A stretch of DNA of 64,000 nucleotides from an uncultured Gemmatimonadota bacterium (GCA_964626665.1 CAZVGK010000001.1:141914-205913); one strand, 5' to 3'; shown: positions 8,726 through 24,575, counted from the first letter of the stretch. Numbers and translations: made by a program. Notes: generated by a model from the sequence alone, not told the origin.

Positions 8726-9730
8726 ATGCCGGGTATCTTATCCCAGGAGGAGATAGACCAATTAGTTTCATCGGTGTCTGAGGGCAAAGGTCAGGGGAGA
8801 AGGCCCCCTGGCGCTGAAAAGGAGGCGATCCCCTATGACTTCCGCCAGCAGAACATAATTCCTAAGGGGTCTTTGCACGCCTTCCAGATAGTCCACAGCG
8901 ATTTTGCCAAATCCTTGAGTGGCTTTCTCCTGAGGAGCGTAAAGACCGAACTAATCGTGAACTTGGCCACTGTCAACACCATTCCCTTAGGGGAGTTTAT
9001 AAAATCGCGGGAGAATCCCACTTATCTAAATTTAGTAAGGCTGAAACCCTTTGAGGGCAACCTGATTATAGATTCCTCTCCTAACTTGGTCTTCCTTCTT
9101 GTTGACCTCCTCTTCGGGGGGACGGGCAGTCCTCCTTCTACAAACGGGTTAATTACCCATATGGAAAGGAAGTTCATGCGGAAACTGATGGAAGGTATGC
9201 TCGAGGAGTTCAAAACCACCTGGGAGAAGATAACCCTCTTTCATCCTAAGATCGAAGAGGAGGAAACCGACCCCTCAATTGTGGGCTCACCATCTAACCT
9301 GGAGAACGCAATGATGGTCATCTACGAATTGAGCCTGGAAAAGGGATCAGAAACCCACCACCTCCTGAGTTTTTGTTATAGCGCTAAACTCCTCAAATCC
9401 CTGGTGGCCGTTCTGGGCCAGAAGAGAGGGGGAGAGGAGAGGGAAGTCCCTCCGCAAGAGCGGGATCAATCGGGGAAATTGAGGAAGAGCTTGGGTCAAG
9501 TGGAGGTCCCGGTGGAGGCAAAGTTGGGTGAGGCCCACCTGACCATTAGGGATATGATTGACCTGCAGGCAGGGGACATCATCAGGCTGAGCAACTATGT
9601 GGGTGGAGATCTAACGGTTGAGGTGAAGGGAAAGCCAAAGTTTCTTGCCCGTCCTGGGGCTTACCGGGGCAAGGCGGCCGTAGTGGTTACCTCAACCCTG
9701 AAGGAAGGAGTGGTGAAAGATGGCGAGTAA
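8726..9730 (+). CDS. fliM: Flagellar motor switch protein FliM
   Basis: N-terminal CheY-P binding motif (ILSQEEIDQLV), middle FliM domain, C-terminal FliN-like domain. Confidence 0.9.
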   Translation: MPGILSQEEIDQLVSSVSEGKGQGRRPPGAEKEAIPYDFRQQNIIPKGSLHAFQIVHSDFAKSLSGFLLRSVKTELIVNLATVNTIPLGEFIKSRENPTYLNLVRLKPFEGNLIIDSSPNLVFLLVDLLFGGTGSPPSTNGLITHMERKFMRKLMEGMLEEFKTTWEKITLFHPKIEEEETDPSIVGSPSNLENAMMVIYELSLEKGSETHHLLSFCYSAKLLKSLVAVLGQKRGGEEREVPPQERDQSGKLRKSLGQVEVPVEAKLGEAHLTIRDMIDLQAGDIIRLSNYVGGDLTVEVKGKPKFLARPGAYRGKAAVVVTSTLKEGVVKDGE

Positions 9731-12037: not shown

Positions 12038-12817
12038 ATGAACCTCTCCTCCTTGGATCACCGTTCCCTTCTGGCCTTTAGCCTACTCTTTATTAGGGTG
12101 CTAGGGTTGATATTTGCGGCCCCCTTCTTTGGCAACACGGCCATCCCCAAGAGAACGAAGGTGGGGCTCTCTCTGGTCTTGGCCGGTCTCCTCCTCCCTT
12201 TTATTCCCTTTCCACCACCGGTCCCGGATGGTCCACTGCCCATAGCCCTTGCTGTAATTAAGGAACTTCTTATTGGCGTTATTTTGGGGTTTTCCGTCTT
12301 TCTGCTCTTTGAAGCCGTAGTCTTCTTCGGCCAGGTGGTTAGCTACCAGATGGGGTTTGCTATCGTCTCCTCCATTGATCCGGAATCCCAGCAAAGGGTC
12401 CCTATCATCGGAAAGTTTGAATACCTTTTGGTCTTTCTGGTCTTCCTAGCGGTGAACGGACACCACCTCCTCCTCTCCGGCCTCTACTCCAGCCTGCGGG
12501 TTATCCCCCTGGGGGAGGCATCCCTAAACTCCTCCCTCCTCCCCTTTATGATCGGTTCTACCAAAGGGGTATTTGCCATAGCCCTCAAGTTGGGGGCTCC
12601 TGTTATAGCTGCCCTTCTCTTCAGTGATTTAATAATGGGCCTGATGGCCAGGGCTATCCCTCAAATGAATGTTTTTATCATCGGTTATCCCATCAGGATC
12701 GGGGTTGGTTTTCTGGCCCTGGCCTTTGGCATCCCCCTTCTGGTGGGCAACCTGCATCAGCTTTTTCGGGGTTTGGGGGGGGAGATCGCTACCCTGCTCA
12801 GGATTTTAGCCCCCTGA
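12038..12817 (+). CDS. fliR: Flagellar export apparatus protein FliR
   Basis: 259 aa polytopic membrane protein immediately after fliQ. Confidence 0.85.
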   Translation: MNLSSLDHRSLLAFSLLFIRVLGLIFAAPFFGNTAIPKRTKVGLSLVLAGLLLPFIPFPPPVPDGPLPIALAVIKELLIGVILGFSVFLLFEAVVFFGQVVSYQMGFAIVSSIDPESQQRVPIIGKFEYLLVFLVFLAVNGHHLLLSGLYSSLRVIPLGEASLNSSLLPFMIGSTKGVFAIALKLGAPVIAALLFSDLIMGLMARAIPQMNVFIIGYPIRIGVGFLALAFGIPLLVGNLHQLFRGLGGEIATLLRILAP

Positions 12818-12825
12818 GTAGAGGC

Positions 12826-12920
12826 TTATACAATTATCAATTAGCAAGTTAAAATGAAATGAAGACCGAAGTGTCACTTTCCATTGATAATTGATAATTG
12901 ATCATGACCATTTCTTAGCG
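12826..12920. repeat. MITE-like intergenic repeat in the fliR-flhB spacer
   Basis: caattatcaattagcaagttaaaatgaa...gtgtcactttccattgataattgataattg...accatttcttagcggtgg; terminal inverted repeats caattatcaatt / aattgataattg. Confidence 0.7.
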
Positions 12921-12945
12921 GTGGACTTGAGCGCAAAGGAGAAAT

Positions 12946-14016
12946 ATGACCGAGGACTCCTTTCAGGAAAAGACTGAGAAGGCAACCCCCCGTCGGAGAC
13001 AAAAGGCCCGGGAAAGGGGGAATGTAGCTAAGAGCACCGAGTTGAACTCTGCCCTCATCCTCTTGGCCAGTCTTGCTGCTCTGGGATTTTTGGCCGCTGG
13101 TATGAGCAGAAGATTGATGGCTCTCTCTCGCTTCTTCCTCTCCCAGGGTTTTGCTATACAACTCAACCAGGTCAATCTCTATTCCTACTTTTGCTTTGTT
13201 CTCAAGGCAATTTTTACCTTATTTGCTCCCTTTCTCTTGGTGGTCGCCATCGCCGGGGTAGCTTCTAACCTGGCTCAGGTTGGTTTTCTCTTTACCCTGG
13301 AGCCCCTGAAACCAAAGCTAAGTACCCTCAATCCGCTGTCCGGGTTCAAGAGGCTTTTCTCCCTTAAGGGGCTCTTTGAACTACCCAAGGCGGTCTTCAA
13401 GCTAATTATTATCGGAATAATCAGTTATCTCACCATTAAGGGTAAGCTAACTCAATTCTTTCTCCTCTCTCAAATGGGATTAAATGCGATGTTAAAGGTT
13501 ATTGGGAAGGTTGCTTTACTCTTGGGGGTGAGGGTCTCCCTGGCGTTTCTCGTCCTGGCGGCAATTGACTATGCCTTTCAAAAGTGGGACTATGAAAAAA
13601 AGCTAAGGATGACCAAAGATGAGGTGAAAGAGGAGAGAAAGCAGTATGAGGGTGATCCATTGATCAAGGGAAGGATAAGGAGCGTGCAGAGGGAACTGGC
13701 TCGGAGGAGGATGATGAAGGAGATTCCCAAGGCCGATGTGATCATCACTAACCCTACTACCTTGGCGGTGGCCCTCAGGTATGATCCCGAAAAGATGTCT
13801 GCTCCTCAGGTGGTGGCCAAGGGGGCGAGGCTCCTGGCCCAGAAGATTATGGAATTGGCCAGGAAACATAATGTCCCCATAGTAGAGAACAGGAGGTTGG
13901 CCAGGCTGCTCTACAGAAAGGTCAAGGTTGGAGAGGAGGTACCTGTCGCCCTCTATCAGGCAGTGGCTGAGGTTCTTTCCTACATTTATAAGTTGAAGAA
14001 TAAGGTGATAGGCTAA
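12946..14016 (+). CDS. flhB: Flagellar export switch protein FlhB
   Basis: N-terminal MTEDSFQEKTEKATPRRRQKARERGNVAKS; autocleavage-type NPTT motif; GGAG RBS. Confidence 0.9.
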   Translation: MTEDSFQEKTEKATPRRRQKARERGNVAKSTELNSALILLASLAALGFLAAGMSRRLMALSRFFLSQGFAIQLNQVNLYSYFCFVLKAIFTLFAPFLLVVAIAGVASNLAQVGFLFTLEPLKPKLSTLNPLSGFKRLFSLKGLFELPKAVFKLIIIGIISYLTIKGKLTQFFLLSQMGLNAMLKVIGKVALLLGVRVSLAFLVLAAIDYAFQKWDYEKKLRMTKDEVKEERKQYEGDPLIKGRIRSVQRELARRRMMKEIPKADVIITNPTTLAVALRYDPEKMSAPQVVAKGARLLAQKIMELARKHNVPIVENRRLARLLYRKVKVGEEVPVALYQAVAEVLSYIYKLKNKVIG

Positions 14017-14163
14017 TAAAGCTTCGAATCTGTACAGATGGGGCTGCACGCTCTTTGTGGATGTTATCATCCACAAAGAGACTCCTTGCAAGCCCATGGT
14101 TACCAGAATGAAATATCGTCTCAAAGTTTAGTCACCTTAGCGAAGATAAGGCAACAGAAACCA

Positions 14164-16245
14164 ATGAGTAAACACCTTCCAGAAAATAGTTTTGTCTCCC
14201 AGCTAGCCAAGAGGGGAGATACCATTGCAGCCATTGGGGTGATTGTGGTTATTACCCTGATTGTCATCCCTTTACCCCCTCACCTGTTGGATGTTCTCCT
14301 CACCTTCAACATCGCCTTCTCCTTGATCATCATCCTGGTTTCTATGTATACCCTAAAGCCCCTTGACTTCTCCGTATTCCCCTCCCTTTTGTTGGTGGTC
14401 ACCCTCTTTCGGTTGGGCCTCAATGTATCTACCACCAGGCTTATCCTGTTGAAGGCCTATGCCGGAGATGTGATATTGGCCTTTGGCAATTTTGTGGTGG
14501 GGGGGAATTATGTGGTGGGGATAGTTATCTTCCTGGTGATAGTGGTTATTCAGTTTGTTGTTATTACCAAAGGAGCCACCAGGATAGCAGAGGTGGCGGC
14601 CAGGTTTACTTTGGATGCTATGCCGGGAAAGCAGATGGCCATTGATGCTGACCTCAATGCCGGCCTGATCGATGATGAAGAGGCCAGGAAGAGAAGGATG
14701 GAGATAGCCAGGGAGGCCAATTTCTATGGGGCAATGGATGGGGCATCTAAGTTCGTCAGGGGGGACGCAATTGCTGGCATCATCATCACTACGATCAATA
14801 TACTTGGCGGCCTGGTTATTGGAGTGCTCCAGAGGGGGATGCCCCTACCCACTGCCCTGCATACTTATACCTTGCTCACCGTTGGTGATGGGCTGGTGGC
14901 CCAGATCCCGGCCCTGGTTGTCTCCACTGCGGCGGGTATAATCGTCACCCGAGCTGCTGCTGAGGCGGATATGGGGGCCGATATAGTCAAACAATTGTTA
15001 GTGCAGCCAAAGCCCATTGCCCTGGTGGCCATCACCCTTCTTTTTGTGGGGTTGGTCCCTGGTTTGCCCATGGTCCCGTTCTTCATCCTTTCCGCAGCAG
15101 CGGGGGGCATTGCCTACTTCTCCCGCCAGGCGCAGAGAAGGTCGGAGGAGTTGCCCCCTCCAGAGGCTGACCTCCAACCACCCAAGGGGGGGATCGAGGA
15201 TATCAAACAGCTACTCCACATAGACCCTATGGAACTGGAGATAGGTTATGGGCTAATCCCCTTAGTGGACAAGGAACAGGGTGGTGATCTTCTCGATCGG
15301 GTCTCTATGATTCGCCGCCGCTCCGCCCTGGAATTGGGAATTATCGTTCCTCCCATTAGGATAAGGGATAATGTGGCCCTGGAGCCTGACTCCTATCTAA
15401 TTAAGATTAAGGGGACGGAGGTAACCAAAGGGAAGCTAAGGGGGGGGGCTCTCTTAGCTATGAACCCTGGCCTGGCTAAAGGTGAGATAGAGGGCACGCC
15501 CACATCTGAGCCGGTTTTTGGCCTTCCCGCCTACTGGATCGAGCCTTCCCAGAAGGGGAAGGCGGAGAGGATGGGCTACACCGTTGTTGAGCCTCCGGCG
15601 GTAGTGGCTACCCACCTATCCGAGGTGATCAGATCCCATGCCGATGAGCTGCTTGGTAGGCAGGATGTGCAGAACCTGGTAGATGGGATAAAGGAGAGCC
15701 ATCCGGCCGTGGTGGAGGAGCTTATCCCTAAGGTGATGGGAATAGGAGGGGTGCAGAAGGTCCTCCAGAGGTTGTTAAAGGAGCGAATAAGCATTAGGGA
15801 CCTGGTGACTATATTGGAGACTCTGGCAGATTATGGGCCCATGGTCAGGGATATAGACCAACTGACCGAATATGTAAGGCAATCCCTTTCCCGTTCCATC
15901 TGCAAACAGTTCTCCGATGAGCAGGGGGAGATAAAGTGTCTTACCCTGGATCCTAAGTTGGAGCAGATTCTCTCTGATTCCATTAAAAGGTCGGAGACAG
16001 GGGCAACCCTGGCCTTGGAGCCGGGAATCGTCCGTAAGCTCTTCGATAGCATATCCGCTAAGCTGGAGAAGTTTGCCCCGATCAATCAGCAGCCTGTAAT
16101 CCTCTGCCCGGCAAGCATAAGGGTCCACCTCCGCAGACTAATGGAAGGAATCCTGCCCAATTTGGTTGTTCTCTCCTATAAGGAGATTGCCCCTTCCATA
16201 AAGGTAAACTCCATAGGGATGATAGGACTGGAAGATGAGAGTTAA
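14164..16245 (+). CDS. flhA: Flagellar export apparatus protein FlhA
   Basis: FHIPEP family membrane domain and cytoplasmic domain; start placed at the internal ATG (MSKHLPENSF...), the 14038 start in the ORF track looks like an upstream over-extension. Confidence 0.9.
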   Translation: MSKHLPENSFVSQLAKRGDTIAAIGVIVVITLIVIPLPPHLLDVLLTFNIAFSLIIILVSMYTLKPLDFSVFPSLLLVVTLFRLGLNVSTTRLILLKAYAGDVILAFGNFVVGGNYVVGIVIFLVIVVIQFVVITKGATRIAEVAARFTLDAMPGKQMAIDADLNAGLIDDEEARKRRMEIAREANFYGAMDGASKFVRGDAIAGIIITTINILGGLVIGVLQRGMPLPTALHTYTLLTVGDGLVAQIPALVVSTAAGIIVTRAAAEADMGADIVKQLLVQPKPIALVAITLLFVGLVPGLPMVPFFILSAAAGGIAYFSRQAQRRSEELPPPEADLQPPKGGIEDIKQLLHIDPMELEIGYGLIPLVDKEQGGDLLDRVSMIRRRSALELGIIVPPIRIRDNVALEPDSYLIKIKGTEVTKGKLRGGALLAMNPGLAKGEIEGTPTSEPVFGLPAYWIEPSQKGKAERMGYTVVEPPAVVATHLSEVIRSHADELLGRQDVQNLVDGIKESHPAVVEELIPKVMGIGGVQKVLQRLLKERISIRDLVTILETLADYGPMVRDIDQLTEYVRQSLSRSICKQFSDEQGEIKCLTLDPKLEQILSDSIKRSETGATLALEPGIVRKLFDSISAKLEKFAPINQQPVILCPASIRVHLRRLMEGILPNLVVLSYKEIAPSIKVNSIGMIGLEDES

Positions 16246-17275
16246 GGTGTTTTCCGCCCCCTCAGTGAGGGAAGCGCTGAACAGGATAAAGGACGAACTT
16301 GGCTCCCAAGCGGTTATCCTGAAAACAGAGCAAGTGAAGGGGAAAGTAGAGATAACTGCAGCCACTGATGTCGATTATCCACCCCTACAGAGGCAAAGGG
16401 GTAGGGTAGAGGGGATATACGATGTCTTAGATGAGCTCAGGGAGAAGGTTGACGTCATCTCCCAGACCTTGGTTTCCTCCCCTTTTCTCCCTCGCTCTCC
16501 CCTTTCCCAGCTCTGGTTTGTGCTCTTGGGGCGAAGGATAGGGGAGGAGACTTCCCTCCAACTAATCAAAAACCTGAAGAAAGACCTCTTTTCCGGGGGA
16601 GATGAGGAGGTGTTGTGGGATGAGCTCATCTCCCAACTGAGTTTGTTCCTCCCCTCGGAGGAGATTGGGGAAAGGCCAAAGGGGCCAGCCGTCGTCGCCC
16701 TCGTTGGACCCACCGGAGTAGGGAAGACCACAACTATCTCTAAATTAGCAGTTAACTTCTCAACTCTGCAGAGGAAGAAGGTTGCCCTTATCAGCATAGA
16801 CAACTTCCGCCCGGCAGCAGGGGAGGAATTAGCCGAGATTGCTCAGAGCTTGGGAATCCCCTTGGAGCTGGCCAAGACTCCAGGGAGTATGGGAAAACTG
16901 CTGAGGGGTTTTCGGGATAGGGATTTCGTCTTTGTAGATACCGCAGGCCATAGCTATCTGGATACCCAGCAGATTTCAGAGTTGAAATCCTTTCTCCAGC
17001 GGCTGCCCTTGCCAGAGATCCATCTCGTCCTTTCCTCTGCGACTAAGCCGGAGGACAACCTTGAGGCCTGGAGGAGATTTCACCCTATACCCATCCACAA
17101 GCTCCTCTTTACCAAGCTTGATGAGACCACCTCCCCAGGGGGGATAATGGAGACCATTTTTAAGGCAAAGAGGCCGGTCTCCTACCTGACCAATGGACAG
17201 AGGATACCAGAGGATTTATGGGAAGCAGAAAGCAGAACGTTAGCCGAGATAGTTATGGGAGAGAGGACCTTATGA
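16235..17275 (+). CDS. flhF: Flagellar biosynthesis GTPase FlhF (SRP-type)
   Basis: GTPase motifs ALVGPTGVGKTTT, DTAGHS, TKLDET. Confidence 0.85.
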   Translation: MRVKVFSAPSVREALNRIKDELGSQAVILKTEQVKGKVEITAATDVDYPPLQRQRGRVEGIYDVLDELREKVDVISQTLVSSPFLPRSPLSQLWFVLLGRRIGEETSLQLIKNLKKDLFSGGDEEVLWDELISQLSLFLPSEEIGERPKGPAVVALVGPTGVGKTTTISKLAVNFSTLQRKKVALISIDNFRPAAGEELAEIAQSLGIPLELAKTPGSMGKLLRGFRDRDFVFVDTAGHSYLDTQQISELKSFLQRLPLPEIHLVLSSATKPEDNLEAWRRFHPIPIHKLLFTKLDETTSPGGIMETIFKAKRPVSYLTNGQRIPEDLWEAESRTLAEIVMGERTL

Positions 17276-18033
17276 GAAAAATCCCTTATATGATAAGCTT
17301 TCCCAGTGGAAAAGGGGGGGTGGGGAAAACCAATTTGGTGGCCAGTTTAGCAGTAGCCCTCTCCCAAAAGGGGAAGAGGGTAATGATCTTGGATGGGGAT
17401 TTGGGTTTGGCCAATGTGGACCTCCTCTTTGGGGTGAATCCATCTTTTACTCTCCAACATGTTCTCTTGGGGAGAAAGGATTTGCCGGAAATTATTGTAG
17501 ATGGTCCCCAGGGGGTGCAGATCATTCCAGCCAGTTCGGGGGTGGATGACCTCCTTAGACTGGAGGAAAGGGAGATGAAGAGGTTGATCAAGGAGTTCCG
17601 GCTCTTAGGTCAGAGCACAGATTTTCTCCTCATAGACACCCCCCCCGGCCTGAGTCCCAATGTGCTGAATTTTGTTTTGGCCTCTGATCTGGCCATAGTC
17701 ATTACCACCCCGGAGGTTACATCCATAACGGACGCCTATGCTACCATAAAGGTCATCTCCCTGCGACAGCCCACCCCGCAACTGCCCTTAGTAGTTAATA
17801 TGGTCGGGGGAAAGAGGGAGGCATCCGAGGTGGTAGAGAGGATTGGACTGGTGGCTGCCAGGTTCCTTAAGGTTCAGGTAGAGAATTTGGGGTTTATCCC
17901 CTCTGATCAATCGGTCCCCCGATCAGTGGCTAAGCAATTGCCATTTTACCTGGCTTTCCCGCATTCTCCCGCCTCCCAGGGGGTTGCCACCCTGGCCCAG
18001 AGGTTGATAAAGCGGGAACCCTTTGGTGAATGA
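17272..18033 (+). CDS. flhG: Flagellar number regulator FlhG/FleN (MinD-type ATPase)
   Basis: Deviant Walker A SGKGGVGKT; start chosen at the ATG overlapping the flhF stop (ATGA); the ORF track start at 17218 is the alternative. Confidence 0.8.
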   Translation: MRKIPYMISFPSGKGGVGKTNLVASLAVALSQKGKRVMILDGDLGLANVDLLFGVNPSFTLQHVLLGRKDLPEIIVDGPQGVQIIPASSGVDDLLRLEEREMKRLIKEFRLLGQSTDFLLIDTPPGLSPNVLNFVLASDLAIVITTPEVTSITDAYATIKVISLRQPTPQLPLVVNMVGGKREASEVVERIGLVAARFLKVQVENLGFIPSDQSVPRSVAKQLPFYLAFPHSPASQGVATLAQRLIKREPFGE

Positions 18034-18263
18034 ACCAGATAATCAACAGATTGGCCAAAGCCGTTGCCTTCTCCTTGGCTGCGGTTACCGTCATCTGCGG
18101 CCTTATCTTTGATGTTGGGATAGTAAGGATATTGGTGCGCACCTTAGCAGTTTATCTCTTCTTTTTCTATGAAATCAGATTTTTGGGGAGGATAATAGGG
18201 AGGATGATAGTCTCCGCGCTGGCCGAAGGGGAGACAACCCCAGAGGAGGAGGTGCAGAGCTAA
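18030..18263 (+). CDS. Hypothetical small membrane protein (77 aa) between flhG and fliA
   Basis: ORF only; two hydrophobic segments; translationally coupled position. Confidence 0.3.
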   Translation: MNQIINRLAKAVAFSLAAVTVICGLIFDVGIVRILVRTLAVYLFFFYEIRFLGRIIGRMIVSALAEGETTPEEEVQS

Positions 18264-18269
18264 TAGAAG

Positions 18270-18998
18270 ATGGATAACTCTCAAAGGGAAAAGTTACTCT
18301 TGAAGTATGCCCATCTGGTTAAGTATGTGGTAAACCGGATGTTGATTAGTATCCCTCCCTGTTTGGAGAAGGATGATCTGATCAGTGCCGGAACGATTGG
18401 TCTGTTGGAAGCAATTGAGAAGTATGACTCGGGGAAGGGGATAAACTTCGAGACCTATGCCATTTACCGCATCCGAGGGGCGATATTGGATGAGCTGAGG
18501 TCTGTTAACTGGGCACCCAGAACAGTTCAGGAGAAGGCACGGGAACTGGAGAGGGCCTATCGCCATTTGGAGCAGAGGTGGGGAAGGATGGCCACAGATG
18601 AGGAGATAACCCAGGAGTTAGGGATAACCCAGGAAGAACTTTATCGCAGGTTGGATGAGGCCCGGGGGATATCTACCCTCTCTCTGGAGCAATTTCAGTA
18701 CTCCCCTAATGGAGGAGGACAAGTAACCCTCTTAGATAGTTTGAGCAGCAGCTCCCCCTCTCCTCTGGCGGATACGGAAAGGGTGGAATTGAGGGAGGCC
18801 CTGGCCAATGTCCTCGCCACATTGCCCGAAAAGGAGAGGATGGTGATGACCCTTTACTACTATGAGGAGTTAACCCTCAAGGAGATTGGGGATGTGCTTC
18901 ACCTATCCGAGTCAAGGGTTTGTCAAATCCATACTAAGGTGATCATCAAACTGCGCGTAAGGTTGAGAAAGGTTTTAGAACCAGCAGGGGCCTCTTGA
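18270..18998 (+). CDS. fliA: Flagellar sigma factor FliA (sigma-28)
   Basis: Sigma-70 family regions 2-4; region 4 HTH (LTLKEIGDVLHLSESRVCQIHTKVIIKLR); downstream of flhFG. Confidence 0.85.
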   Translation: MDNSQREKLLLKYAHLVKYVVNRMLISIPPCLEKDDLISAGTIGLLEAIEKYDSGKGINFETYAIYRIRGAILDELRSVNWAPRTVQEKARELERAYRHLEQRWGRMATDEEITQELGITQEELYRRLDEARGISTLSLEQFQYSPNGGGQVTLLDSLSSSSPSPLADTERVELREALANVLATLPEKERMVMTLYYYEELTLKEIGDVLHLSESRVCQIHTKVIIKLRVRLRKVLEPAGAS

Positions 18999-19093
18999 GA
19001 GGTGGGAAGCTGCAAATTTTAAAGTGTAAGAGCAAAAATTACCTTTGTTTCCATCCCCATTAAAGCAACATCTTTCCTTTTACTTTGCCTTTT

Positions 19094-19165
19094 TCAATTC
19101 TCAATCTCTGGCTGCAAAACTTGACACAAATTTTAAGAAGTTGCCTTATGAAACCAGCTAAAGCT
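19094..19165. repeat. Intergenic repeat downstream of fliA, related to 62758-62815
   Basis: caatctctggctgcaaaac...ttatgaaaccagcta. Confidence 0.5.
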
Positions 19166-19175
19166 TAGAAGAGAG

Positions 19176-19424
19176 ATGGCTGAATCGATAGATTTTCCTA
19201 AAGACCTTCCGGAACCGGGAAATATCAACCGGGTCCAGGGGGTAGGACACCGCCCCAACGAATCGGAGAAGAGGAAATTTGCTCAGCTCTTAGAGAAGGA
19301 TGAGGAGAAGAAAAAGAAAAAGAAGGAGCACCTTCCCCCTGCGCCGCAGGGCGAGAAGGGTGAACCCCCTAAAAAGGGTTCTTCAGCAAATGGGCGGGGG
19401 AAATTCATCGATGTGACCGTTTGA
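19176..19424 (+). CDS. Hypothetical Lys/Glu-rich protein (82 aa)
   Basis: ORF only; low-complexity charged sequence; follows fliA. Confidence 0.3.
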   Translation: MAESIDFPKDLPEPGNINRVQGVGHRPNESEKRKFAQLLEKDEEKKKKKKEHLPPAPQGEKGEPPKKGSSANGRGKFIDVTV

Positions 19425-20557
19425 TGATGAGAGCTGAGAAGCTGAGGGGCAAGCCCTTATTCTACATAGCAGAACGACCTGGTGAGGATCTCCTCGCGGG
19501 CCTAAGGCCGGGTGCGGTTCTCCGAGGGAGGGTAGTGAGGATACTTCCTCCTGATAAGGCCATAGTTAGAATAAGGGGGTTAAACCTTGTGGCCGAAAAC
19601 CACAGCGGGCTAAAGAAAGGGGATCGTTTTCGGGCCGGGGTGAAGAAGATGGGCCTCCCTTTGGCCTTGACCCTTTTGGAGGAGAATCCCCCTGATGAAA
19701 TCTCCTCCCGCCTAAAGGAAATCGGCATCCAGCCCACCCCTCTAAACAGGGCTTTGGCACAGGCCCTATTGGCCAACGATTTTCCCTTAAACAGAGAGGA
19801 AATGGAAAGTTTTCTTTCCTTATGGAAGAGCGTTTCTTCTGGGTTGGGGGAGGATTCAGTTAGGATAAAAACTGTCATCCTTTTCAAAAAGCTGCAAGCT
19901 GCACCTTCCCCTGAGATGCTTGAGGCCCTTAAGGGGGAGAAGCTTCTTATGGGGAAGAAGATAGATGAGGCCATCCGCTTTTTTCCTCAGCTTGGTGAGG
20001 CCCTAAGCCATCTTCCCGTCCTCCCTGGTGACCCCCAATTTCCCGCCAGGGTGCAGAAGCTTCCTCAGGAGGAGGATGATGTTATAAGAAAGGCTCTACC
20101 TTTGTTGCAGGTGTCCCCGGCGAAGGTTACCCCTCAATTGAAGGATTTCATCAGGGATGTGGGCTATATCAGGGATTTGCAGTTCCTATCTGATAGCTCA
20201 AAGGTTATGACCTATCGGCAGATTCCTATCCAAGAGGGGGATAGGGTGCAAACCCTGCAGTTAAAGATCGAGGGGAAAGGCCGCTCGGTGTGGTTAAGGC
20301 TTTTAGGGGAGATCAGGAAGGGAGGGCGGGTTGAGCTAGTGGTTCACTTAGATGGCCAGAGGGTCCTTTTAAAGGTCTGGGCGGAAAAGGAAAGAGCCGG
20401 TTCCCTCTTTGAGGGAAAATTGCGGGAATTAGAGGAAAAGATAAAAGGCCTGGGCCTTAAGCTGGCCACCCCCCTTATCTGGCAGCAGAAGATCTCCCTC
20501 TCCCCTCTTTCGTTTCTCATCTCCTCTGGGGAGGGGGCCGTAGATCTCAAAGGGTGA
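19421..20557 (+). CDS. Hypothetical protein (378 aa), possibly flagellum-associated by context
   Basis: ORF with start overlapping the previous stop; no motif recognised. Confidence 0.4.
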   Translation: MMMRAEKLRGKPLFYIAERPGEDLLAGLRPGAVLRGRVVRILPPDKAIVRIRGLNLVAENHSGLKKGDRFRAGVKKMGLPLALTLLEENPPDEISSRLKEIGIQPTPLNRALAQALLANDFPLNREEMESFLSLWKSVSSGLGEDSVRIKTVILFKKLQAAPSPEMLEALKGEKLLMGKKIDEAIRFFPQLGEALSHLPVLPGDPQFPARVQKLPQEEDDVIRKALPLLQVSPAKVTPQLKDFIRDVGYIRDLQFLSDSSKVMTYRQIPIQEGDRVQTLQLKIEGKGRSVWLRLLGEIRKGGRVELVVHLDGQRVLLKVWAEKERAGSLFEGKLRELEEKIKGLGLKLATPLIWQQKISLSPLSFLISSGEGAVDLKG

Positions 20558-20568
20558 GGGGAAATTTG

Positions 20569-20633
20569 CAATTATCAATTAACAATGAGCAATTAAGAAA
20601 TCCCCCCTATACAATGGAAAAAGAGCAGAAAGA
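20569..20633. repeat. Partial copy of the caattatcaat repeat upstream of the DUF342-like gene
   Basis: caattatcaattaacaatgagcaattaagaaa...acaatggaaaaag. Confidence 0.5.
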
Positions 20634-20711
20634 AGATAGCATCCTTTATAGACTGGCCGCTGAGCTTGTCTCCTATCTCTATGACCTCGATCCGGAGGAG
20701 GAGGAATAAAA

Positions 20712-21575
20712 GTGGGGCAGACGAAGGTTATCGCAGGGGACATCGATCGGATGAGCGGAGATCTCTCCTTTGAGGGTTCCCTCAGGGTGGAGGGGAGTAT
20801 CAAGCGGGGACAGCGACTGAAGATCTCCGGAGACCTTCTGGTGGAGGGGGAGATTGAGGATGCGGAGGTGGAAACCGGTGGGATGATCACCGTTCAGGGA
20901 GGGATTACGGGAGAGGGTAAGGGGGTGATCTTGGCCTCCGGAGGGGTGAGAGCGAAGTATATAAATAATCAAACTGTAATCAGCCACAGTTTAGTGGAGG
21001 TGAGTGAGGAGATCAGGCAGGCCATCATAAAGGCCGATCAAATGGTGCTGGTTACCCAGGGGAGGGGTTGGATAGTAGGGGGCACAATTACTGCGGGGAG
21101 GGAGGTAAGGGCCAGGAACATTGGCAGTCGCTATGCTACTCCCACTATCATTAAGGTGGGTTTTCTCCCCGAGGTGTGGGATAAGTTGGATGGATTGAGG
21201 AGAAAGATAGCGATGAAGGAGAGGATAAGGACCCAGATGGGGAAGGAGCTGAGCTACCTGCGAAAGCTCAAGAAGCAGGAAGGAAAACTTCCCCCCAGGA
21301 AGGAGGAGCTACTTCAAGAGATAGACTTTCTCCATGGAATCTACCGGGACCAGCTTAAGGAGATGAAGGAGGAGTGGGATTTTTTGGAGAATCACCTCCA
21401 GGAGCTAACCGTGGGTCAGGTGACAGTGGAGGAGATGATCTTCCCCGGGGTGGTCATTAATATCTTAAACTCTCAACGAAAATTAGAGGAAGTCAAAAGG
21501 GGGGTTATCTTCAAAAAGGATAAGGATGAGGTAATTGACTTACCCTGGGAAGTTGGCAATTCCAAGGGCAAGTGA
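20712..21575 (+). CDS. FapA/DUF342-like protein (beta-helical repeats plus coiled-coil tail), GTG start
   Basis: Gly-rich repeats (GDLLVEGEIEDAEVETGGMITVQGGITGEGKGVILASGGVRAKYI) followed by a charged helical region; GGAGGAGGAGG RBS. Confidence 0.4.
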   Translation: MGQTKVIAGDIDRMSGDLSFEGSLRVEGSIKRGQRLKISGDLLVEGEIEDAEVETGGMITVQGGITGEGKGVILASGGVRAKYINNQTVISHSLVEVSEEIRQAIIKADQMVLVTQGRGWIVGGTITAGREVRARNIGSRYATPTIIKVGFLPEVWDKLDGLRRKIAMKERIRTQMGKELSYLRKLKKQEGKLPPRKEELLQEIDFLHGIYRDQLKEMKEEWDFLENHLQELTVGQVTVEEMIFPGVVINILNSQRKLEEVKRGVIFKKDKDEVIDLPWEVGNSKGK

Positions 21576-21764
21576 GAAGTGAAAAAGGGCCACATTTTTA
21601 TTTTTGACTTTTCGCAAGTGAAAAGGCAGTTGATGCTTATTGTCCTCTCAGATATCGGTAAGTCCAGAGTAAAGATCCGACCCCATCTTAACCGAGTTGA
21701 TTTCCTTTCTTTGACCTTACCTGTTAGACCCCCAAAAATGGGGGACGGTGGTGCAGAGAGTGCA

Positions 21765-22310
21765 TTAGCTCTTCCATTTATTTGAGATCCTTTCCCCGAT
21801 AAGACTTATCTCTTTCTTACTTACAACCCTGTTGATACATGAAGTAGTCACCCCTAAATGACGGGCAACTTCTGCTCCACTCATCCCTAACTTCTTTAAG
21901 GCCAATTGAGCAACTATAAACCTTCTATACCTATTTTGGGCTTCCTTTGTCCCTTCTCCAAATCTGGCCAATACCTCTTCTACTCTCTGTCATGACCTTT
22001 CTATCTTCCCCATTAAGGCTGAATGACCACACCAGGGATACCGATCAAGCTCTTCTAAGTTCTTCACCAATCCTGCTCGATATGGACATATCTGGTAAGC
22101 TCTAACAAAAAAGGGGTTTCTTCACATAGAATTGATTTATATCGGTTTTGAAAGAGGTATCCCTGCCTATTATTGAAGCTTACGGCGTATCCAGTCATCA
22201 GTTTCCTCATAGCCGAAGATAGAGATGTAACCCTGTGCGAATCAGGAGATGAAAATGGTTGGGAATCAAAGCCCAAGCATATATCTGCCCCATCGTCCCC
22301 TATGCTGTCT
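21765..22310 (-). pseudogene. Degraded IS200/IS605-family or RAYT-like (Y1 HuH) transposase, broken by frameshifts and in-frame stops
   Basis: Three reading frames on the - strand give consecutive pieces: ...IYAWALIPNHFHLLIRT (HuH motif), MRKLMTGYAVSFNNRQGYLFQNRYKSIL..., VKNLEELDRYPWCGHSALMGKIE, and a C-terminal HTH-like tail; no intact ORF. Confidence 0.55.
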
Positions 22311-22456
22311 GATAAGTATCTTCAAGAATATAGACTTTCACCTTTCAGATGAAAAAAGGGGATTAAACTCAATTTTTAAAAGCTCTTTATTTTAAATATC
22401 TGGTGATAATCTTGTGAAATCTCGTGGTTTCTTAACGCATAATCTGGGTTAAAGTT

Positions 22457-23671
22457 TTATCCTCTCTCTTGAATTTCAGGGGGGATTTGGCCGGGTTTTT
22501 TTATCCTTTTAATCAGGGCAGGGATTACCTGGAAGAGATCGCCCACTATAGCATAGGTGGCCACTTTGAAGATGGGGGCCTCTGGGTCCTTGTTTATGGC
22601 CACGATCACCTTTGCTGACTGCATGCCCACCAGATGTTGGATGGCCCCTGATATGCCGCAGGCTATATAGAGTTGCGGACAGACGGTCTTTCCGGTCTGA
22701 CCAACCTGATGGGAGTAGGGGATCCAACCGGCATCAACCGCGGCCCGGGAGGCCCCTACAGCTCCCCCTAAGGCTCTGGCCAACTCCTCTATCAGGTCAA
22801 ATTTAGAGGGATCACCTAAGCCCCTTCCCCCGGAGACGATGATGTCGGCCTCGGCTATGTTGATCGTCTCCCCCTCCTCCTTGACCACCTTGAGGAGCTT
22901 GCTGCGGGAGGGAAGCTCCTTCGGTTTAAACTCCTTGCGGATTAGTTGGCCCTCCCTCTTCTGGTCAACTGATCCTGCCCTCATTACCTTAGGTCTCACC
23001 GTGGCCATCTGGGGGCGGTGATGGGGGCAGGTGATGGTGGCCATAATATTCCCCCCAAATGCAGGACGGGTCTGGAGGAGAAGGCCGTTTTCCGGGTCGA
23101 TCTCCAGTCCCGTGCAGTCCGCGGTTAGACCCGTCTTTAATTTAGTGGCCACCCGGGGGATGAGGGATCTCCCCAAGCTAGTCCCCCCTCCGAGGACTAT
23201 CTCCGGTCGGTACTCCCGGATGAGGGCGACCAAGGCCTGGGTATAGGGCTCCACCAGAAAGTCCTCCAATTGAGGTGAGTCAACCAGGTAGACCCGGTCT
23301 GCCCCCCACTGGATCAGCTCCGCAGCCTTATCCTCTACCCCCCAGCCAAGCAGGACGGCGGATAGCTCGTCCCCTCTGGCCTGGGCGAGCCTTCTGCCCT
23401 CACCCAGAAGCTCAAAGCTTACCGGATTTAATTTCCCCTCTCTTTGCTCGGCGAAGATCCAAATCCCGGAATAGCCTCTTTCAGCCGGAAGCTCGCTCTT
23501 CCCCCTAATGAGGATGGCATTGAACTTGCAGGAGTCAACACAGGCTCCACAGAGAGTGCATCCCTGGCCGATAACGGCTAAGCCCTCGACCATCTCGATG
23601 GCTCCATAGGGGCAGACCCCCACGCAGGCTCCACATCCCACACACCTTTCTTGAATGACCTCTATGTTCAT
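22457..23671 (-). CDS. etfA: Electron transfer flavoprotein alpha subunit with N-terminal 2x[4Fe-4S] ferredoxin domain
   Basis: Two CxxCxxCxxxC(P) motifs, then ETF-alpha FAD-binding C-terminus ([33 protein letters not shown]); start set at internal ATG (MNIEV...). Confidence 0.85.
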
Positions 23672-23681
23672 AATATTTAAA

Positions 23682-23711
23682 AAAATAAGGGCCTCGGCTC
23701 TGGGACCCTTA
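23682..23711 (-). terminator. Candidate intrinsic terminator hairpin downstream of the rplQ-containing transcript
   Basis: Perfect 8-bp stem (aataaggg / cccttatt) with 14-nt loop, followed by a T-run on the - strand; abuts the etfA start. Confidence 0.35.
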
Positions 23712-23847
23712 TTTTTCACCTTGTTACAGTTTACAGGGATCAGTAGTCATGCGGTTATCGGAGCCTAGTTATCAGTTGTCACAGATTTCCTCCGCTCCCC
23801 GTCAACTGCCCTCTGATCCCTTGGGGTTGATCCCCGGGACTGTTATT

Positions 23848-24171
23848 CTATCCCTTGATTGCCTTTCTTAGCTTATACCGGATTTGGTCCATCTCATCCT
23901 TGGTAATCTTTTTGTCCTTAAGGGCCTTCCTAATGTATTTTACGACCTCGCGGACCTCTTCCTTCCTTACTCTCTTTTTTTTGAGGGCGGCCCTAAACTT
24001 CCGGAAAAGGGGCTTTACCCCTGTCCTGTCATAATTGGGGGGGAGGGACTGCTCGACCTTCACCTCCAATCCCTTAAACCCGTATTCTAACAGTCTCCCC
24101 TTGAGAAGGATTACGGCCAAAAGGATTAGCAAGGCCACGCCCAAGATGGAGAGCAAACAGCCCTTCCTCAT
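23848..24171 (-). CDS. Hypothetical small membrane-anchored basic protein (107 aa)
   Basis: ORF immediately downstream of rplQ; N-terminal hydrophobic helix, Lys/Arg-rich tail. Confidence 0.35.
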   Translation of the reverse strand: MRKGCLLSILGVALLILLAVILLKGRLLEYGFKGLEVKVEQSLPPNYDRTGVKPLFRKFRAALKKKRVRKEEVREVVKYIRKALKDKKITKDEMDQIRYKLRKAIKG

Positions 24172-24575
24172 TTCTTTTCTGTTTTCCCAGCAGGTTTCTC
24201 AGGTTCAACCTTCTCCACCCCCTCCTTGACCAATTGCAGGAGGGAGAGGGAAGCGCCATCCCCAGGACGGAAGCCGAGCTTGATCCTTCTCGTGCAGCCT
24301 CCGTTCCTCTCCCCATACCTCAGAGCGATATCATCAAATAGCTTAGCTATTATTGATTTATGCGGAAGCGTCCTCAGGGCAATTCTTCGGGAATGGAGGT
24401 CACCCTTCTTGCCCAAGCTGATTAGCTTCTCGGCCAACCTCTGGGCCTCCTTTGCCTTGACACTGGTAGTAGTTATGCTCTCGTGGAGGAAGAGGGAAGA
24501 GACCAGATTCCGCAGCGTTGCCCCTCGGTGGGCAGGATTTCTGCCCAGATGGTTGCCCTTCTTTAGGTGTCTCAA
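24168..24575 (-). CDS. rplQ: 50S ribosomal protein L17
   Basis: MRHLKKGNHLGRNPAHRGATLRNLVSSLFLHESITTT; follows rpoA. Confidence 0.9.
   Translation of the reverse strand: MRHLKKGNHLGRNPAHRGATLRNLVSSLFLHESITTTSVKAKEAQRLAEKLISLGKKGDLHSRRIALRTLPHKSIIAKLFDDIALRYGERNGGCTRRIKLGFRPGDGASLSLLQLVKEGVEKVEPEKPAGKTEKK

Follow-up and report, generated by a model that had tools for sequence, protein, structure and literature searches.

A probable dead TIRtron that retains both TIRs, between the flagellar cluster and etfA of a Zixibacteria-like bacterium

The closest described relatives of the locus reported here are the Y1 transposases of subclass 2.1, which are long TnpA-REP-like proteins with a C-terminal extension of the Bac_DnaA_C, HTH_23, or HTH_28 type and without REPs (Quentin et al. 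2018, PMC6006769). Quentin et al. equated this subclass with the TIRYTs, or "TIRtrons," of Di Nocera et al. 2013 (PMC6006769). TIRYTs are bounded by terminal inverted repeats (TIRs), many of which have the motif GGGGWSAS, and in some genomes the TIRs form families of repeats (Di Nocera et al. 2013, PMC3733652). The class was described from genome sequence only, and functional assays were proposed as future work (PMC3733652, PMC6006769).

We analyzed a 64-kb stretch of DNA (the window) and found a Y1 (HuH) transposase pseudogene at 21765-22300 on the minus strand. The locus is very probably a dead, internally deleted TIRtron (a TIRYT, of Y1 subclass 2.1) that kept both of its TIRs. As in the described TIRtrons (PMC3733652), a RAYT-like Y1 gene is accompanied by TIRs instead of REPs, the tips of the TIRs fit GGGG[AT][CG], the TIRs lie at a fixed short distance from the ends of the ORF or overlap them, and solo, dimeric, or clustered copies of the TIR occur elsewhere. 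Unlike those TIRtrons, the window's copy is a pseudogene; its tip is GGGGACG[AGT], with G instead of A at position 7; and its host is from an uncultivated Zixibacteria-like lineage that was outside that study. With subclass 2.1 (more precisely 2.1.2; PMC6006769), the family shares a long protein, a C-terminal extension similar to Bac_DnaA_C, HTH_23, or HTH_28, the lack of nearby REPs, and a Ser next to the catalytic Tyr (NRYKS). The window's copy differs in having lost the N-terminal third and the linker, and it was assigned to 2.1.2 by these features, not by a tree.

A sequence-only reading had proposed an eroded Y1 transposase, from motifs that are spread over three minus-strand frames. When we translated these frames for 21700-22460, we found all of the quoted motifs. 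The segments read ...GQIYAWALIPNHFHLLIRTG in one frame, VTSLSSAMRKLMTGYAVSFNNRQGYLFQNRYKSILCEETPFLLELTRYVH in another, and, in the last, RAGLVKNLEELDRYPWCGHSALMGKIERS, a stop codon, QRVEEVLARFGEGTKEAQNRYRRFIVAQLALKKLGMSGAEVARHLGVTTSCINRVVSKKEISLIGERISNKWKS, and another stop codon. Pfam analysis of the four separate ORF fragments gave HTH matches only, and none to Y1; the fragments had to be stitched together before similarity to Y1 showed. The stitched 177-aa translation has 1879 homologues among the 5.8 billion proteins that we searched (best E = 5.6e-53). The best homologues are intact proteins of about 330 aa with Y1_Tnp (and Bac_DnaA_C). PF01797 is present in most of the homologues, and PF08299 is additionally present in some. 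Searching the window with intact relatives (tblastn) placed four pieces, spread over three frames, in collinear order, and the 64 kb contained just this one copy of the transposase. In the alignment, HFH of the HUH motif matches the family-invariant H60 and H62, and the Tyr of QNRYKS (codon 22141..22139) matches the invariant catalytic Y102. The homology, the collinear pieces, and the retained HUH motif and Tyr bear out the earlier proposal. The remnant itself scores below threshold against Pfam's Y1_Tnp (18.6 bits, threshold 23) and against REP_Tyr_transpos (NCBIfam NF047646; 30.8 bits, cutoff 80), so the family assignment rests on the homologues. The tail matches HTH_23 with E = 3.1e-5 (24.1 bits, threshold 24.6) and HTH_28 weakly.

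Table 1. Features of the relic and the flanking genes, in window coordinates
Feature	Position	Strand	Remarks
Left (5') TIR, GGGGACGATGGGGCAGA	22284..22300	-	Tip at 22300; 15/17 positions match the right arm
Coding piece A, aa ~47-68 of ~331-aa protein	22231..22283	-	Holds HFH; tblastn, alignment
HUH segment, YAWALIPNHFHLL	22281..22243	-	HFH at 22257..22249, within NHFHLL
1-nt deletion, frameshift	near 22231	-	End of piece A
Coding piece B, aa ~69-121, other frame	22082..22231	-	Catalytic-Tyr motif NRYKS
9-nt in-frame deletion, FN---NRQGY	~22166-22172	-	Inside piece B
LFQNRYKS core	22147..22133 (NRYKS)	-	Frame translation
~10-nt deletion, frame shifted again	22080..22081	-	L-N-P of conserved HLNPLR gone; sequence and alignment gap
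Coding piece C, aa ~126-156, RAGLVKNLEELDRYPWCGHSALMGKIERS	21993..22079	-	tblastn, alignment
ELDRYPWCGHS	22040..22020 (YPWCGHS)	-	Frame translation
In-frame TGA (TGG>TGA)	21990..21992	-	At conserved Trp, RxW-Q; alignment
Coding piece D	21768..21989	-	aa ~158-180 (QRVEEVLARFG...RYRRFI) and HTH tail, aa ~285-324
~310-nt deletion junction	21915/21914	-	aa ~181-284 lost; tblastn, alignment
HTH tail core, GMSGAEVARHLGVTTSCINR	21887..21828	-	
Original TAA stop of transposase	21765..21767	-	
Right (3') TIR, GGGGACGGTGGTGCAGAGAGTGC	21741..21763	+	Tip at 21741, inward reading on + strand; 21741..21757 is the arm compared with the left TIR
Hairpin GACCCCC-AAAAAT-GGGGGAC	21727..21746		Right TIR tip and sequence just outside element
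fapA	20712-21575	+	PF03961; last gene of flagellar cluster
etfA	22457-23719	-	Fer4+ETF; ends ribosomal-rpoA-rplQ-107aa block

By tblastn and alignment, the window retains about aa 47-68, 69-121, 126-180, and 285-324 of the protein (Table 1). There is no uninterrupted ORF over the catalytic domain: we found two frameshifts, one nonsense codon, and two large losses. We considered whether TGA might be reassigned as a sense codon, but this would make no difference, as the frameshifts and deletions by themselves disable the gene. The N-terminus had been noted as missing, and aa 1 to ~46 are indeed lost, through a ~180-nt deletion that leaves the 5' TIR abutting codon ~47. Because that TIR was kept and is joined to codon ~47, the N-terminus went in a deletion inside the element, which itself was not truncated. 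The distance from TIR to TIR is 560 nt, as compared to 995-1085 nt for intact relatives. Among 47 family-invariant residues, 32 are kept (including H60, H62, and Y102), 13 are deleted, and just two are substituted. Since the surviving parts are nearly unsubstituted, the decay was chiefly by deletion.

The TIR is present in exactly two copies in the window, inverted, at both edges of the protein homology. The sequence-only reading's proposal that a mobile element once inserted between the flagellar cluster and the etfA/ribosomal block is supported. There are no further copies of the TIR, and no REPs, in the 64 kb. The tips (GGGGACGA and GGGGACGG) match GGGGWSAS at seven of the eight positions; position 7 deviates. 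The first seven nucleotides, GGGGACG, are common to the window's TIRs and the GGGGACGT-tipped TIRs of full-length relatives at four other loci (L007, L008, L009, and L013). The probability of finding this family-derived 7-mer by chance at both edges, correctly oriented, is about 7e-6. A generic inverted repeat this good arises in 2% of shuffles of the 881-nt spacer that contains the relic (P ~ 0.02), so what identifies the TIRs is their position and their similarity to the family; we dropped the generic test as sole evidence and used the family motif and its position instead. The window's right TIR closely resembles those of L007 (GGGGACGTTGGTGCAAAGA) and L008 (GGGGACGTTCGTGCAGAGCGTGC). The TIRs are perfect in L009 (25 nt, GGGGACGTAGGTTCTCAAGCAACTT) and in L013 (20 nt, GGGGACGTCTATGATTTTAT), they are 43 nt long in L008 (GGGGACGTTCGTGCAGAGCGTGC...), and both ends of L007 carry AAAGGGGACGT. 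We saw no target-site duplication flanking the window's element or its relatives.

The four elements with full-length genes are arranged alike. The left tip lies about 58-66 nt before the ATG (MPR...), and the right TIR either overlaps the stop codon or lies shortly behind it. In intact relatives, these 58-66 nt and 46 codons separate the tip from YAWAL. The reconstructed proteins begin with MPRQARLDAPG... and have 331-333 aa (L007-L009) or 297 aa (L013).

At three of these loci (L007 5884-6879, L008 5857-6858, and L009 5857-6855), the start of the gene was called 39-50 codons too late. This yields database proteins of 284-292 aa (P0005, P0025, and P0003), while the DNA encodes an uninterrupted N-terminus (331-333 aa). 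Because of such late calls, many database entries of the TIRYT family look N-truncated without being so. For L007-L009, the uninterrupted MPR... N-terminus in the DNA led us to reject the idea that the "intact" relatives are N-truncated as well.

The sequence-only reading described the protein as RAYT/IS200-like. That it is a Y1 protein with an HTH tail stands, but its family can be named more precisely, as neither the RAYTs nor IS200/IS605, given the TIRs, the lack of REPs, and the missed cutoff. The intact relatives pass the threshold of Pfam's Y1_Tnp (29-43 bits versus 23) and match Bac_DnaA_C weakly, but they score just 52-66 bits against the RAYT equivalog (NF047646), whose cutoff is 80. 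A search for repeats found no REP-like palindromic arrays in 21500-22500. With no flanking REPs, and with the RAYT cutoff missed even by the intact relatives, this is not a REP-associated RAYT. RAYTs (TnpA-REP; E. coli YafM-type, 4ER8) do share the HUH motif and the single catalytic Tyr with our family, and they give its best structural match, but they are about 165 aa, end without an HTH tail, and have REP/BIME hairpins on their flanks, which are absent here. Similarly, TnpA proteins of IS200/IS605 (IS608, ISDra2, and IS200; 2A6M, 2XMA, and 2F4F) have the Y1 HuH fold and PF01797, but they are about 130-150 aa, lack an HTH tail, and act on elements with subterminal imperfect hairpins rather than TIRs, which are often multi-copy and paired with tnpB. 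In contrast, the intact relatives of the window's element have 297-333 aa and an HTH tail, and their TIRs, of 20-43 nt, are perfect or nearly so.

We checked the fold on a family member (full-length P0100) rather than on the remnant. An AF2 model of P0100 from a 94-sequence alignment has a pLDDT of 89.9. When this model was compared to the PDB with Foldseek, the top match was 4ER8, which is E. coli TnpA-REP with a REP hairpin (E = 1.8e-6, TMt 0.70), followed by the TnpA proteins of IS200, ISDra2, and IS608 (2F4F, 2XMA, and 2A6M). Searching the PDB by sequence (phmmer) or by profile (hmmsearch) gave no true match; the single matches, to S100-A13 and to a capsid protein, are spurious, and the fold search was needed. 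Judging from the model, the family is predicted to work like the HuH/Tyr single-strand nucleases of the RAYT or IS200 type, though it belongs to neither family.

The relic lies within an 881-nt spacer between the convergent genes fapA and etfA. On the fapA side, the cluster encodes FlhB, FlhA, an SRP54-type GTPase (FlhF-like), a ParA/MinD-type ATPase (FlhG-like), a FliA-type sigma factor, and a weakly FliK-like protein. On the other side (22457-24575), the Fer4-fused etfA directly follows rplQ and a gene for a ~107-aa protein without a Pfam match, and there is no adjacent etfB.

We found a single related reference genome, the Candidatus Zixiibacteriota MAG L015, whose FapA is 82% identical. 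L015 is collinear with 12671-21546 of the window, at 77-83% nucleotide identity, and departs exactly at the end of fapA. Beyond fapA, L015 has convergent genes that we named, from their translations, as rpoD-, dnaG-, and mutS2-like. On the other side, relatives whose EtfA is 80-89% identical (L021-L024) all keep the order rpoA-rplQ-(~107 aa)-etfA, but the sequence after etfA differs. In L024, etfA is followed by a gene for a 1089-aa protein, whose C-terminus we take to be a T9SS sorting domain. The contigs of the three other relatives end 232-312 nt after etfA. There is no trace of a TIR or of Y1 downstream of etfA in L021-L024. Since each flank is conserved in relatives but their adjacency is not, the relic lies at a genuine synteny breakpoint, as judged from one informative relative on each side. 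The region had earlier been described as rearranged, with the pseudogene as support. The synteny with relatives upholds the breakpoint, but the pseudogene alone is no evidence for it.

The element might itself have brought the flagellar cluster and the etfA/ribosomal block together, for instance by recombination between two TIRtron copies or by aberrant transposition. The breakpoint coincides with the element, as collinearity with L015 extends to the 3' end of fapA and no further; the sequence after etfA is variable among relatives; and the L015 spacer holds a TIR-tip-like AAAGGGGGACGTT. However, both TIRs belong to a single element and are collinear with one gene, instead of forming the chimera expected from recombination between copies. 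Convergent gene ends are also common neutral insertion sites, and common breakpoints anyway, and there is but one informative relative per side. We therefore consider a causal role to be unlikely. More plausibly, the relic would lie at the breakpoint because the intergenic site is permissive and variable.

The sequence in the L015 spacer, at 9239-9270 downstream of fapA, is a solitary TIR-tip-like CAAAGGGGGACGTTAATAAAATTAT (GGGGACGT), with P ~ 0.02 in 685 nt and no nearby homology to Y1. Possibly this is a solo TIR in the corresponding place.

We also looked for the TIR elsewhere. An exact scan of JGI metagenome contigs found the exact 23-nt right TIR at five unrelated loci. The scan was incomplete (it did not return the window's own contig, although this contig carries the pattern), so its negatives are weak. 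The first locus, L016, is a miniature of 200 nt from TIR to TIR that contains just the segment for the HTH tail and is 84% identical to the window. L017 keeps about 110 nt of the tail, frameshifted. L018 (Ga0209635_10202932) has three direct copies of the TIR in a GA-rich array, and L019 and L020 are solo TIRs. There is no Y1 ORF at any of L016-L020. Within the L018 array, the TIR core GGACGGTGGTGCAGAGAGTGCAGA is found at offsets of 0, 381, and 666 from the first tip, amid GA-rich repeats (AGAGCGGAGAGCAAAGAG...), and a transposase gene is absent.

Another decaying copy, from the window's sample series, is at L010 4001-5202 (Ga0315548_1003669). It encodes P0096, which at 69% has the highest identity to the window's Y1 core. 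It has an in-frame stop after codon 305, beyond which the HTH tail continues in frame, and an extra insertion of about 60 aa in the middle. Its right TIR has the tip GGGGACGCC, and its left TIR is not detectable. This copy adjoins a PemK toxin gene and a DDE transposase.

Could the 560-nt remnant be a MITE-like non-autonomous element that is mobilized in trans by an intact TIRYT elsewhere in the genome, and that kept both TIRs owing to this mobilization? Like MITEs and other internally deleted IS derivatives, the remnant kept its ends and lost its interior (both TIRs survive although about 520 nt are gone), and the miniature L016 is a 200-nt version of this design. Five unrelated loci carry the identical 23-nt TIR, among them that miniature and the three-copy array of L018, and repeat families of TIRs were reported in some genomes (Di Nocera et al., PMC3733652). 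On the other hand, the window's derivative shows no sign of amplification, unlike MITEs, and no target-site duplication; a second copy of it was not found in the JGI scan, which is weak evidence given that the scan was incomplete. The breakpoints in L016 and the window differ, which points to independent decay. Also, no intact protein above 69% identity was found among 5.8 billion proteins, with the same samples included, and the left TIR is reduced to 17 nt. Mobilization in trans thus seems quite improbable, and we prefer a dead element that decayed in place.

We next consider whether the HTH tail could have a function of its own. One JGI pipeline called a 68-aa HTH ORF at 21765..21971 (minus strand) in the contig L002; this ORF is the tail of the pseudogene. 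The ORF might have survived by exaptation, as a small regulator that binds DNA, with decay limited to the remainder of the gene: it is open, similar to HTH_23, and called as a gene in one assembly, and the tails from the window and L016 have pN/pS = 0.34 (44 codons). But the ORF starts with TTG inside a pseudogene and spans the junction of the ~310-nt deletion, a consensus scan found no sigma-70-like promoter match upstream, the homologous tail in L017 is frameshifted, and the gene caller for a different assembly chose an ORF on the opposite strand. The pN/pS of 0.34 fits just as well with divergence that arose when the parent genes still worked; as that divergence may predate inactivation, we rejected the ratio as evidence for selection. 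We think that exaptation is very unlikely, and that the relic most likely has no function now.

The spacer's two 68-aa ORFs, 21579-21785 (plus strand) and 21765-21971 (minus strand), are mutually exclusive and were called by different JGI pipelines. The plus-strand ORF lies mostly outside the element and crosses the right TIR. Both are probably artefacts. A scan of 21300-22700 against Rfam found nothing at E <= 1. In a consensus scan for terminators, neither fapA nor etfA had a convincing candidate in the spacer: the single match lies inside the pseudogene and is within the expectation from shuffles, and the hairpin at the right TIR tip was not scored as a terminator.

We also noticed a palindrome elsewhere in the window. 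A perfect 30-nt palindrome, CTCTTTGTGGATG-TTAT-CATCCACAAAGAG, lies at 14050-14079, at the start of the flhA ORF and just after flhB. It consists of two inverted 9-mers that resemble DnaA boxes. The window has no other copy, and by chance 0 would be expected. The palindrome is kept at the same place in the Zixibacteria relative (L015 1341-1370), and 29 nt of it are identical at L017 2851-2879, in an unrelated contig with a solo TIR about 500 nt away. The palindrome could be a binding site for a regulator or for DnaA. We rejected a link to the DnaA_C-like tail of the transposase, as the window has one copy, 7.7 kb away, and there is none beside the intact TIRtrons.

The remaining alternative, that the transposase gene is truly intact and that its frameshifts arose during sequencing or assembly, is extremely unlikely: the source is metagenome assemblies and one of the frameshifts is a single-base deletion, but two JGI contigs, of 151 kb and 103 kb, match 14572-35555 of the window at 100% identity, a third JGI contig (all three are from different samples) and a Logan contig from another assembler are likewise identical over the remnant, and the lesions include a nonsense codon and deletions of 10, ~180, and ~310 nt. 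This identity across independent assemblies, together with the sizes of the deletions, excludes sequencing or homopolymer error. Thus, the two frameshifts and the in-frame TGA are genuine, as the sequence-only reading had supposed.

Several independent assemblies break at the edges of the spacer. A 42.7-kb JGI contig stops at 21479, within the 3' end of fapA, and Logan contigs from 11-15 samples begin or end at 22407-22424, about 105 nt beyond the left TIR. Strain heterogeneity or a repeat may account for these breaks. We sought an empty site or a fuller allele in contigs that encode the exact FapA or RpoA proteins and found the same sequence only.

These observations suggest a history for the locus. 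The ancestor would have been a mobile or formerly mobile element of about 1.0-1.1 kb with a single gene and with TIRs tipped GGGGACG. Its protein would have combined a RAYT-like Y1 nuclease domain at the N-terminus with a DNA-binding tail similar to DnaA_C or HTH_23 at the C-terminus, joined by a linker. It presumably inserted into the intergenic region between the convergent genes fapA and etfA of a Zixibacteria-like bacterium, by the HuH/Tyr single-strand mechanism that is known for RAYTs and IS200/IS605, and afterwards would have decayed to 560 nt, mostly by deletion, with both TIRs kept. To our knowledge, transposition of a TIRYT has never been shown experimentally.

Decayed transposases in intergenic spacers are commonplace, and this one is an ordinary genomic fossil. 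For annotation, the locus should be labeled as a TIRYT/TIRtron pseudogene, not as RAYT or IS200. The finding carries the little-studied TIRYT class into an uncultivated phylum, and it documents a conserved architecture: a GGGGACGT tip, an ATG about 60 nt further in, and a right TIR that either overlaps the stop codon or comes after it. The verified synteny breakpoint should be of use for comparative genomics of the Zixibacteria. More broadly, TIRtrons decay into TIR-bounded miniatures and solo TIRs, which provide material for asking whether TIRYTs mobilize TIRs as RAYTs mobilize REPs. A more speculative scenario, which we doubt, is that GGGGACG-tipped TIRtrons are or were recently active in Zixibacteria-like genomes, that they yield TIR-bounded miniatures (the window's 560-nt element and the 200-nt L016) and solo or arrayed TIRs, and that one such insertion or recombination event gave rise to the lineage-specific fusion of the flagellar cluster with rpoA-rplQ-etfA. 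If true, this would be a first natural-history handle on the mobility of TIRYTs.
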